Positions 3,814 through 32,511 of a DNA stretch of 32,511 nucleotides are shown here, in pieces. Position numbers and translations under genes: made by a program. The stretch is from a virus, in the IMG/VR virus record IMGVR_UViG_3300025632_000008; one strand, 5' to 3'. The stretch's first letter is position 1; every line of letters begins with the position of its first letter. Under the pieces are notes generated by a model that saw only the letters and a program-made list of their open reading frames with translations, had not been told where the DNA came from and ran no database searches.

Positions 3814-3830
3814 AGTGACGTTACGTCACT
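3814..3830. promoter_or_regulatory. Palindrome AGTGACG-TTA-CGTCACT (GTGACG-N3-CGTCAC motif, instance 1)
   Basis: Perfect inverted repeat 60-75 nt upstream of the exonuclease start. On the minus strand it is followed by CATATTGCC. Confidence 0.45.
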
Positions 3831-4490: not shown

Positions 4491-4961
4491 TTAGACTAAG
4501 TTTTCTTTTGCATACAATCCAATGAGTGCGGCTTCTGCTCGTCCGTCATCTTTAACTCGTTTGAAATAGTGTGCATGGTTAGGGAAGCAGAGCTTCGCTA
4601 GTCTTCTACTTTCACCCTTGTCTCTTGAAAGGTCAAAGTATTTCTTCCACTGACGTGGCGTCACATATTTTATAGGTAGCTTTGAAGCAACGATACCCAT
4701 CTCTAGCTGACCAAAGCCCTGTCCGAATCTGAATGTACTGCTAACACCTTGATTAGGCATAGCATTTACACTCTCGATCACAGCTAAGGCTGGTTTGTTT
4801 CTTTGGTTAGATAGGATTGAAAGTAACTCAGGTAAGTTAATTAATGTCTTACCCTTTGGTGATTGGGCTACTGGAATATCGTAGATAACTAAGCTGTCTG
4901 TTTCTGTTTCATATATGCTGACTGCTCCTGTAAATCCGGGGTCGATTCCATAAATGAGCAT
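4491..4961 (-). CDS. RuvC-like Holliday junction resolvase
   Basis: GIDPGFTGAV at the N-terminus, VIESVNAMPNQGVSSTFRFGQGFG, VTPRQWKK and DDGRAEAALIG follow the RuvC-fold catalytic layout. Confidence 0.8.
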   Translation of the reverse strand: MLIYGIDPGFTGAVSIYETETDSLVIYDIPVAQSPKGKTLINLPELLSILSNQRNKPALAVIESVNAMPNQGVSSTFRFGQGFGQLEMGIVASKLPIKYVTPRQWKKYFDLSRDKGESRRLAKLCFPNHAHYFKRVKDDGRAEAALIGLYAKENLV

Positions 4962-7478: not shown

Positions 7479-7505
7479 TTGATAGAGTTGATAGAGTTGA
7501 GAGTG
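7479..7505. repeat. Tandem 9-bp repeat: TTGATAGAG x2 plus degenerate TTGAGAGTG
   Basis: Read directly. Related copies are GATAGAGTTGA at 6915-6925 and TTGATAGAGT at 8382-8391. Confidence 0.7.
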
Positions 7506-7507
7506 GT

Positions 7508-7525
7508 GAGGGGCCGAAGCCCCTC
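7508..7525 (-). terminator. GC-rich hairpin with a UUCG tetraloop after the 137-aa gene (no U-tract)
   Basis: The minus strand reads GAGGGGC-TTCG-GCCCCTC, 7 nt after the stop at 7532. The missing T-run makes it a stabiliser, processing site or weak terminator rather than a canonical one. Confidence 0.4.
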
Positions 7526-7531
7526 TGAAGG

Positions 7532-7945
7532 TTATGATGCGAGGATGCGCTTGATTTCGGTGTCGAGGCCAAGGCCGTCTGAAGTGAAGGTGCGCTTGGG
7601 CTTGTGTTGCCACACTTCGCCTTGGGTAACGATGGTATAAACTTCTAGGTCAGCATTGTGACGCTCAGTAAGTTCATCCATCTCGCGTTCCATCGAAAGA
7701 TAGAGGCGAGCTTTCTTTTCAATGCGGATGTCTACGACCTCTGAGCCTTTGGCTGGAGCGAGTTCAGCCATGTCGTTCTTGACGATCGACATCTGTTCGC
7801 CCTTCCATTCGATTGAATTGAAGCTGGTGTAGCAAGCGTCCTTGGCAATTTGAGTGCGAAGGTATTCATTGTCAGAACCTTTATGATGGTTAATTACATC
7901 TAGTTTGAGTTGAACGAGTGTCGGTGATGTGTTCTTCTTAGTCAT
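7532..7945 (-). CDS. Hypothetical protein, 137 aa; first leftward gene next to the non-coding island
   Basis: The ATG at 7945 is preceded by acaggagaactagac. The track's longer 169-aa version would read through this RBS. Confidence 0.65.
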   Translation of the reverse strand: MTKKNTSPTLVQLKLDVINHHKGSDNEYLRTQIAKDACYTSFNSIEWKGEQMSIVKNDMAELAPAKGSEVVDIRIEKKARLYLSMEREMDELTERHNADLEVYTIVTQGEVWQHKPKRTFTSDGLGLDTEIKRILAS

Positions 7946-8555
7946 GTCTAGTTCTCCTGTAGAATCGAGAGGTCCGTCCCCTCGGTGAAGACCCAGAGAC
8001 ATGCCCACAAATCCCAGCTTGCTGGGGCTTGACGTTCGCAACTGCTTTCCTCACCAGACGCAGGCTGGACTAAGCACAGAAGAGCCACACACACTCAGAT
8101 CTGAGCCGCCAATGGAAAGTAGTTGCGAATGTTTTGTGGAGCTTGTCACGCAGGGCAAGACGAGGGGCGGCCGAGCGATACAGGAGAACGGCAAACATGG
8201 CTAAGACAGAACACTGAGCCGTAAGCGAGTTCAACTTAAACTTGATGTTTTTTAGTAGGCCATCATTTTAGAAGGTTCTGACAATGGATGCCTTTGCCGA
8301 AGATTGCAGGACGTTGGCTACCCAGCTGAGATTCAAGAGGATGGAGGGGTGAGCAGTTGGAGGGAGGAAGGGGCGATATGGTTGATAGAGTGATCCAAAG
8401 GTGTAGAGGTTGTAGACATTGAAAAGAGAGCTTGCAGATAGCTTGTGGTGGAGCGTGAGACTTACTGAGTGTCGCAAGGATGACTTGGAGTTTAGAGCAT
8501 TGTTAGACAAGCGTGGCAACCAGCCCAAGTGGATCTTTCTTTAGCGGGCTTGGCC

Positions 8556-8585
8556 TTGACGCTGAAGCTATGCTCATACTTTAAT
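8556..8585 (+). promoter_or_regulatory. Weak candidate rightward promoter TTGACG-18-TTTAAT
   Basis: Hexamers read by eye, with an 18-nt spacer. The CTGAAG/CTTCAG inverted repeat (8562-8567 and 8586-8591) brackets it. Confidence 0.2.
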
Positions 8586-8654
8586 CTTCAGAGAGCTTTG
8601 GCCGCTAAACGCTGTCAACAGCTAAACGAGGTACTATGATACCTAAATGAGGTA

Positions 8655-8678
8655 GTGACGCTGCGTCACATATTGACA
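8655..8678 (+). promoter_or_regulatory. Palindrome GTGACG-CTG-CGTCAC (instance 2) abutting a perfect TTGACA hexamer
   Basis: Perfect 7-bp arms at 8655-8661 and 8663-8669. TTGACA at 8673-8678, about 80 nt upstream of terS. No good -10 at a 17-nt spacing. Confidence 0.4.
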
Positions 8679-8756
8679 TAGATCAACGAAATAGTGCTGT
8701 GTGGGGGGAGAGAGGGAGAGGGGGGCAAGCATGAGGATAAAGGATAGAAAGTACGG

Positions 8757-9137
8757 ATGACTAATGTTCCGAATATAAGAAAGCTGACTGAGAAACAGAC
8801 AGCGTTAGTTGACACCATTGTAGCAAACGGGTGTACGATAGCTAAGGCAGCAGAGCTAGCTGGATATAGTAGCGGTGAGTCGGGAAGAGTAACTGCAACC
8901 AAGACGATGAAGCTACCACATGTGCAACAGTATCTGATGCAGAGGATGAATGAGGAATTTGGGCTAAGTGCTACCTTGGCAGCTGGGACAGTGAGACGGC
9001 TAGCTACGGGGGCTAAGTCTGAGTACGTTCAGCTAGAGGCTAGCAAGGATTTACTGGACCGTGCTGGGTACAAGCCGATAGACAGGTCACAGGTACAGGT
9101 TGCTGGTGACATTAAGGTGTCAATAGATCTCGGCTAG
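8757..9137 (+). CDS. terS: Terminase small subunit (Terminase_2-like)
   Basis: LTEKQTALVDTIVANGCTIAKAAELAGYSSGES...LDRAGYKP follows the LTxKQ..F...N...A...AGYS pattern of small terminases. Confidence 0.8.
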   Translation: MTNVPNIRKLTEKQTALVDTIVANGCTIAKAAELAGYSSGESGRVTATKTMKLPHVQQYLMQRMNEEFGLSATLAAGTVRRLATGAKSEYVQLEASKDLLDRAGYKPIDRSQVQVAGDIKVSIDLG

Positions 9138-32369: not shown

Positions 32370-32511
32370 ATGAAGGACGCAGAGATCATACACCTGTTCG
32401 ATCAGAATGTTGAGCTAATCATTGAAGGCTTGGCTGCTCGGTCGGGCCGAGAGTTTCAGGAAGTTCTTTTACTTTTACAGAAAGGTAGGAAACTACATGG
32501 CACACACGGTA
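32370..32511 (+). CDS. Junction-spanning 49-aa ORF (continues to the stop at nt 133-135 of the window start)
   Basis: TAGATG coupling to the upstream gene. Translation is MKDAEIIHLFDQNVELIIEGLAARSGREFQEVLLLLQKGRKLHGTHGIR. It is complete only if the genome is circularised. Confidence 0.4.
   Translation, partial: MKDAEIIHLFDQNVELIIEGLAARSGREFQEVLLLLQKGRKLHGTHG
32385..32511. repeat. Terminal direct repeat, copy 2 (identical to 1..127)
   Basis: See copy 1. Confidence 0.9.

Follow-up and report, generated by a model that had tools for sequence, protein, structure and literature searches.

A conserved helix between the early and late blocks of a marine podovirus is the core of a fold-back element that most likely controls the first early gene

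In the genes e, soc, 49 and I-TevI of phage T4, as well as in the fold-back inhibition of IS10, the translation start is masked on long transcripts and free on those that start internally. Leader hairpins processed by RNase III are known from the R0.3 site upstream of gene 0.3 in T7 and from the N leader of lambda. Long hairpins are also found in ssoA of rolling-circle plasmids and in Frpo/ssi of the F plasmid, that is, in replicons with an obligatory single-stranded DNA stage and a Rep nickase, and a hairpin has likewise been proposed for the processing of the T7 concatemer junction. In T4-type phages, the PeSLs (promoter-early stem-loops) are motifs of about 100 bp, present in about 50 copies per genome, each combining a stem-loop that acts as a terminator with a strong promoter of the sigma-70 type (Arbiol et al. 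2010, PMC2839356).

The window analyzed here, the whole 32,511-nucleotide stretch of the IMG/VR virus record IMGVR_UViG_3300025632_000008, is a circular assembly of about 32.4 kb with an exact 127-nt end overlap (1-127 equals 32385-32511), and consequently its start is arbitrary and coordinate 1 is not a physical end. It carries a T7-type portal (PF12236), a small terminase gene (terS, 8757-9137) and a rightward structural block, together with a leftward early block in which Erf, a YqaJ-type exonuclease, a RuvC-like resolvase and DUF932 were recognized by Pfam and PHROGs searches of the scanned ORFs. No polymerase, primase, initiator, Rep, relaxase or reverse transcriptase was detected among these ORFs with the same two resources, several small ORFs still having no annotation. 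Among cultured phages, Pelagibacter phage EXVC031P Hodr (hereafter Hodr) comes nearest, with a portal identity of 63%; literature searches on Hodr and on the T7 junction hairpin gave nothing usable. The core of the element described here sits in the 811-nt gap between terS and the first leftward early gene, designated G, for which Pfam and PHROG searches returned no match. The AlphaFold model of G (pLDDT 85) consists of two long helices arranged as a helical hairpin, and a Foldseek search of this model against the PDB gave no significant or informative fold match. Distant homologues of G are found in the same position in two further loci (L038 and L034). The gene is a hypervariable cassette, as the window and three relatives (L121, L119 and L116) illustrate: where the flanking DNA is 90-93% identical, the encoded G proteins agree at no more than about 30% of their residues. 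Across the family the alleles differ by 40-70% at the protein level, and some are recognizable solely by profile comparison.

A preliminary description of the gap had singled out a 20-bp helix and several local structures around it. A pair table bears out the helix, in which 8031-8050 pairs with 8114-8133 through 17 Watson-Crick and three G-U pairs and encloses 63 nt, and the palindrome CTCAGATCTGAG (8094-8105), the hairpin CCCAG-cttg-CTGGG (8013-8026), a mini-ORF (8197-8217) and a T6 run (8248-8253) were all located where they had been placed. Two details needed correction: the AGGAG motif is present, at 8182-8186, one base off the position 8183-8187 given for it, and the hairpin at 7966-7984 is present and covarying, its stem containing one A.C mismatch. 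Folding of the stretch 7960-8260 yielded -109.4 kcal/mol on the plus strand (z -4.3, with 0 of 100 shuffles as good) and a less clear -102.6 kcal/mol on the minus strand (z -2.1). The wider stretch 7890-8255 folds as a single giant hairpin on both strands (z -10.8 plus, -9.5 minus), and in its minus-strand fold, at -153 kcal/mol, both the Shine-Dalgarno sequence and the AUG of G are paired. As had been supposed, the region could not be assigned to any known family: Rfam 15 gave no match in the whole window at gathering thresholds, and at E<=10 the stretch 7800-8900 returned only noise (best E 0.48, a eukaryotic miRNA model). A tRNA/tmRNA search found none, and a blastn search of the gap against 50,697 phage records found no match. 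The features on which the following argument relies are listed below.

7496-7961: left arm of a 1.1-kb inverted repeat, comprising G, its ribosome-binding site (7951-7961) and a 3' GC hairpin; from inverted repeats and arm alignment
7532-7945, minus strand: gene G, first leftward early gene, 137 aa; from the ORF and the family alignment
7962-8174, plus strand: core element of eight helices, including the 20-bp helix; from the covariance model R1 and an RNAalifold consensus of 62 pairs
7966-7984: GC-rich local hairpin adjoining the ribosome-binding site, left arm only; stem kept through many double changes across lineages
7973-7984 with 8161-8171: helix 1, long-range; double changes at 11 of 11 pairs
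8012-8027: side hairpin CCCAG-cttg-CTGGG (helix 5), left arm only; all six pairs covary
8031-8050: 5' arm of the 20-bp helix, carrying the family-wide conserved motif GTTCGCAA
8051-8113: apical domain (63 nt) whose sequence and length both vary in the alignments, containing the palindrome 8094-8105
8114-8133: 3' arm of the 20-bp helix, carrying the conserved motif TTGCGAAC
8175-8619: right arm, a non-coding, frameshifted inverted copy of G, 445 nt; from repeats and alignment
8179-8189: mirror ribosome-binding site, in the right arm
8197-8217: mirror ATG and six-codon remnant, in the right arm
near 8585-8610: mirror 3' hairpin, in the right arm
8612-8640, plus strand: promoter-like block cTGTCA-17-TATGAT where the right arm ends; from a promoter scan and conservation across loci

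In order to place the core in a wider context, relatives were gathered by a terS-based scan of IMG/VR, which found at least 596, of which 80 loci were kept, and a covariance model (R1) was built from nine close copies. Of 82 loci from related marine podoviruses, 31 are matched by R1, and in every one of them the match has the same orientation with respect to terS; in the window R1 matches a single site, on the plus strand. The core begins about 16-20 nt from the start codon of G and usually lies 220-330 nt before terS. The core comes in a long form, of 210-265 nt, and a short one, of about 150 nt; both carry the motif pair GTTCGCAAgg / ccTTGCGAAC, and in the short forms a loop of 16-20 nt replaces the apical domain. 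In an alignment of 28 distinct homologues, which was fitted to the model and therefore leans towards structure, 93.6% of the cells are paired, the share being 72% for shuffles and 30-42% for slid controls, and double changes occur at 52 of the 62 consensus pairs. The alternative pairing of 7978-7984 with 8161-8167, proposed earlier from the window by itself, covaries, and so does the competing local pairing 7966-7972:7978-7984; with this conservation and covariation in relatives, the claim of a real structured region with alternative folds holds. Likewise, the side hairpin shows an A-U to G-C double change in three loci (L008, L009 and L010). The 12-bp palindrome is not conserved and falls in the variable apical domain. 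The helix arms of the window type are found exactly in 19 IMG/VR contigs and the short-form core in 25, and the core is better conserved than the adjoining coding sequence. The best inverted repeat lies at the position of the element in approximately 51 of 67 loci with enough upstream DNA, including groups missed by R1, this being a rough count made without a per-locus control. The terminal loops of several short forms share the sequence GCGnAGCGT (for example L043 2605-2752, L004 581-731 and L013 2625-2773), in which AGCGT resembles the CS-6 motif of ssoA, possibly by coincidence.

The two arms of the 20-bp helix are the innermost well-matched portion of a much larger structure, a single imperfect inverted repeat of 1.1 kb (7496-8619) whose arms are 77% complementary in the window. 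A search for repeats turned up five inverted ones in collinear order (I1-I4 and I7) with their center near 8070, and alignment of the reverse complement of 7500-8082 with 8062-8660 placed about 40 indel breaks between the arms over 519 aligned columns. The ribosome-binding site of G, TACAGGAGAAC, has a perfect 11-nt complement in the right arm (7951-7961 versus 8179-8189), and a close relative (L127, 96.7% identical) retains the entire right arm. The AGGAG motif, the MAKTEH mini-ORF and the T6 run had been read as an RNA leader module; they are the first 70 nt of the decayed inverted copy of G. The proposal of a discrete RNA of 200-290 nt ending at the T6 run had to be abandoned as well, since there is no terminator and the run lies inside the mirror arm, where it follows no stem. 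In fact, no terminator-like site was found in 7946-8756 on either strand and no sigma-70-like promoter inside or next to the element of the window, and a terminator-ended small RNA was rejected because neither signal stands beside the element. A leader peptide was discarded on the grounds that the mini-ORF has 2-19 codons of unrelated sequence in the relatives and aligns to the start of G. As to the traits of a riboswitch or attenuator, the two mutually exclusive pairings of 7978-7984 do both covary, there is no terminator, the leader peptide is not conserved and no known aptamer is matched. A G-rich, C-poor tract (8331-8510) lies wholly within the mirror arm, and its skew belongs to the general gain of G and loss of C in that arm. 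The helix is no isolated motif but the core of a conserved fold-back element of the first early gene, and it most likely acts in the control of this gene and not as a free-standing small RNA.

The same plan recurs across the family. In each of the 20 lineages tested, the non-coding flank to the right of the core mirrors the ribosome-binding site, the ATG and at least the first 15-25 codons of the lineage's own G, with z values of 7-29 against shuffles for the translation start. A mirror of the whole gene is also present in five other lineages (L023/L029, L038, L071 and L081) at 80-85%, and in others about two thirds of the gene is mirrored. Arm lengths range from 60 to more than 500 nt among lineages. 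The arms never extend beyond the 3' end of G, and on the other side they stop at the conserved promoter-like block, the distance from arm end to terS being 148-210 nt in most relatives and 138 nt in the window. In 12 loci the two arms agree at 77-89%, and this identity does not fall off along the arm; the mirror stays about 80% complementary to the G of its own phage, and each mirror is nearest to its own G allele (75-86%). Mismatches and bulges are spread through the arms, leaving no long perfect duplex; the longest perfect runs, of 10-19 nt, are never above those of shuffles and are significantly shorter in three loci. Recent gene conversion between the arms was rejected on this basis, there being no tracts, and the complementarity thus appears to be maintained and deliberately imperfect. 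A comparison of two loci (L041 and L049) points the same way, double changes keeping the pairing in 15 of the 19 cases that start as a pair. Where relatives have flanks that are 93% identical, both the G allele and its mirror can be different ones, from which it follows that G, hairpin and mirror move as a cassette. In Hodr (L083, 12160-12420), the corresponding sequence is AT-rich and unalignable, and the plan is the same: a gene start, a long hairpin, and a mirror ribosome-binding site with a mini-ORF, located between the terS-side gene and the first early gene. A diversity-generating retroelement was rejected, the repeats being inverted, differences at A, C and T being alike, indels being many and no reverse transcriptase having been detected.

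Since the repeat is inverted, the complementarity lies within one strand, and the only RNA certain to exist at the element is the mRNA of G. As the best of the readings considered, although one that we would not yet call probable, we tentatively propose that the element is a fold-back RNA leader which acts in the leftward RNA and masks the translation start of G; the proposal is based on the location of the ribosome-binding site and AUG in the stem, on where the arms end, and on the left-arm hairpin with its switchable half. Long leftward transcripts would arise from the conserved promoter block to the right of the arm, with the mirror arm as their leader, and this leader would fold onto G and bury its Shine-Dalgarno sequence and AUG, while the downstream early genes could still be expressed. 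Translation of G would occur only from RNA without the outer arm, produced either from a promoter inside the hairpin or through endonucleolytic cleavage of the long duplex by an RNase III-type activity. Once the outer arm is gone, 7978-7984 would switch partner from 8161-8167 to 7966-7972, forming a small 5' hairpin upstream of the freed ribosome-binding site. Masking of G is favored by the same-strand complementarity over the start of G in 20 of 20 lineages, by its conservation despite the divergence of the alleles, and by its recurrence in Hodr, where a promoter-like TTGCCA-16-AATAAT inside the right arm, pointing at G, fits an internal promoter. On the other hand, promoter searches by consensus, which covered the window and family alignments, gave no clear call: in the window no convincing leftward promoter turned up to the right of the arm or within the hairpin, and a leftward TTGACA-12/14-TATAAC at the arm boundary has non-canonical spacing. 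Two further points stand against masking: lineages with long arms would duplex the whole coding sequence, which would appear excessive for hiding a start site, and there is an asymmetry in wobble pairs and folding energy towards the plus strand, considered below, which compositional drift weakens but does not remove.

The element, as read from its sequence, would work like the known masking hairpins, and what sets it apart is its scale, its coding arm and its long-term co-evolution with a hypervariable gene. As in T4 and IS10, the Shine-Dalgarno sequence and AUG, here those of G, have their complement in a segment that lies further upstream on the same strand. In contrast to the purely intergenic pairings of about 10-20 bp in those systems, the masking arm spans 60-500 nt, mirrors coding sequence, co-evolves with the hypervariable gene and encloses a structured core of 150-260 nt; the internal promoter of the T4 and IS10 cases is hinted at here only in Hodr. 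With R0.3 of T7 and the lambda N leader the element shares a long irregular hairpin, containing at least 20 bp of duplex, placed between the early promoter region and the first early gene of a phage with a T7-type virion, and by analogy processing could free the ribosome-binding site. It differs from these leaders in having no sequence or Rfam relationship to them, in its much larger size and in one arm being coding, and the 20-bp helix of the window has three A.C mismatches on the minus strand. The position of a stem-loop at the start of a variable early orphan gene, swapped as a cassette between related phages, is reminiscent of the PeSLs (PMC2839356), but unlike them the present element is single-copy, measures 300-1100 nt, has no recognizable promoter or terminator and pairs with coding sequence.

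The preliminary description had taken the three G-U pairs of the 20-bp helix as evidence for a rightward transcript. The plus strand does give the better fold here, as it does for 28 of the 31 full spans compared across relatives, with a minimum free energy of -637 kcal/mol for the full span of the window against -447 kcal/mol on the minus strand; compositional bias, however, confounds this, and the argument from the wobbles is weak. The three G-U pairs amount to three C-to-T differences between the arms, which would all fall on one strand by chance in 1 of 4 cases, and in the short forms the same helix is a perfect 13-bp palindrome. Over eight long-arm loci, wobble mismatches number 236 on the plus strand and 56 on the minus strand, and in the short flanks the corresponding counts are 74 and 15. 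Among the recent changes between the window and its relative L127, 14 interconvert Watson-Crick and plus-strand G-U pairs, the latter being A.C mismatches on a minus-strand RNA, against four for minus-strand G-U pairs. The substitution matrix of the mirror arm shows a general gain of G and loss of C that extends to transversions (T to G 24 versus 6, C to A 18 versus 1), and owing to this compositional drift the family-wide excess of plus-strand wobbles is not readable as selection on a rightward transcript. A call of the strand from wobble pairs was accordingly rejected, since the local hairpins have no wobble asymmetry and that of the arms is confounded by composition. As regards the strand on which the fold might act, we would go no further than a lean to plus.

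It is conceivable, although doubtful, that the mirror is a maintained anti-gene of up to 500 nt, co-evolving base by base with G, and that its plus-strand fold acts either as RNA or as single-stranded DNA for the priming or loading of replication; if true, this would be a principle of control or replication undescribed for tailed phages. Taken separately, each of these two forms is unlikely. In the first, a rightward transcript would run antisense over G and through the mirror arm and form the giant hairpin as a plus-strand RNA, arising from read-through of the late operon round a circular or concatemeric genome or from a dedicated promoter; the hairpin would then be a structure for processing or stability where the late operon begins, or would neutralize the antisense segment. 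The excess of plus-strand wobbles in every long-arm lineage and in the short flanks, together with the more stable plus-strand folds of 28 of the 31 spans, is consistent with such an RNA, as is the tendency of both arms to be rich in G and T on the plus strand, the GC skew of the coding strand of G being -0.14 when that of the other annotated early genes is 0 or above. Nevertheless, the bias also appears in transversions and is thus at least partly compositional, and no rightward promoter was seen left of or inside G, nor is there a terminator or an Rfam-like motif. The start point of this RNA would moreover have to differ between short-arm and long-arm lineages, and there is no obvious reason for it to mirror the translation start of G.

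The second form, a hairpin of plus-strand single-stranded DNA serving replication as a priming or primosome-loading site or as a fold-back primer, we regard as quite unlikely. It would be exposed on the lagging-strand template, on a displaced strand or through 5'-3' resection by the YqaJ-type exonuclease, and a single-stranded state would indeed be needed, because central spacers of 16-130 nt make extrusion of a cruciform from duplex DNA unlikely. The gene content of the window is compatible with this use, Erf, the YqaJ exonuclease and a resolvase being present and polymerase, primase and initiator not being recognized among the scanned ORFs; so are the strand asymmetry of the fold, the location at the point of early/late divergence beside the conserved block next to terS, and the likeness to CS-6 seen in several short-form loops. 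With ssoA, Frpo and ssi the element shares a long imperfect hairpin that seems to favor one strand and conserved unpaired motifs, but those elements do not overlap the translation start of a gene, and no Rep nickase is seen here. Priming needs neither a ribosome-binding site nor coding sequence, nor a stop exactly at the gene end; neither a rolling-circle Rep nor a nick site turned up, known ssi/sso elements measure 60-330 nt compared with 1.1 kb here, and the contigs that end near terS do so through assembly breaks within a polypurine tract and not at termini.

Action as duplex DNA is improbable. Here, mirrored promoter-operator units, divergent or face-to-face, would be bound by a symmetric regulator with GTTCGCAA and TTGCGAAC as half-sites, in keeping with the strong primary-sequence conservation of the inverted motif pair, with the divergent control region and with the promoter-like hexamers found on both strands inside the arm of Hodr. 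Yet the spacing of the motifs, from about 23 to more than 130 nt, is unsuited to a fixed dimeric site, the covariation over 62 core pairs and 60-500 flank pairs goes far beyond an operator, and the element of the window contains no sigma-70-like promoter. Finally, a passive relic, in which an inverted duplication of G arose through template switching at the hairpin and is now decaying, with a helix devoid of function, would explain the many indels, the clearly non-coding copy and arm lengths that vary from 60 to over 500 nt, but is highly improbable given that the arms of 12 loci all stay within 77-89% identity, with neither a young nor a fully decayed pair among them, that the mirrors track their own alleles over deep divergence with compensatory double changes, that the coding sequence next to the core is less conserved than the core itself, and that the layout recurs in Hodr with unrelated sequence.

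The group of T7-like podoviruses concerned is common in marine viromes, as indicated by the at least 596 terS relatives in IMG/VR and by a cultured Pelagibacter phage with the same layout, which makes Hodr a usable experimental model for the arrangement of hairpin plus mirror. The fold-back element accounts for 300-1100 nt of seemingly empty DNA, the largest non-coding island of the group, in otherwise tightly packed genomes, and mini-ORFs in this gap should be annotated as mirror relics and not as genes. It is also a natural setting in which to study compensatory evolution, on a large scale, of a coding and a non-coding sequence. Should the masking of G prove true, translational masking of the T4/IS10 type would extend to a much larger scale; should the plus-strand RNA or the single-stranded DNA hairpin be the functional form, the element would bear on the start of replication or on the separation of early and late expression in podoviruses lacking a polymerase.

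Several other features were noted in the vicinity of terS. Hodr displays a near-consensus late promoter, TTGACA-17-TATACT, 45 nt beyond its mirror arm. In the window, a polypurine tract of 23 nt (GGGGGGAGAGAGGGAGAGGGGGG, 8703-8725) lies 30-50 nt upstream of terS and is near-invariant across very divergent relatives; it might serve as a packaging signal, give rise to an R-loop or a G-rich RNA, or belong to the leader of the late operon. The tract is also where several IMG/VR contigs break, and one shows a poly-C artefact there. A genome terminus beside the hairpin was rejected in view of the circular assembly, the excess of contig ends near terS being an assembly artefact in the tract. Between the right arm and the tract, a palindrome GTGACG-N3-CGTCAC is followed by ATATTGACA before terS (8655-8678), and further sites lie at 3815-3829 and 4650-4664. 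At up to two mismatches, the palindrome occurs in four copies in the window against 0.64 expected, it is duplicated in two relatives (L081 and L078), and it is likely to represent an operator/promoter module used in both directions.
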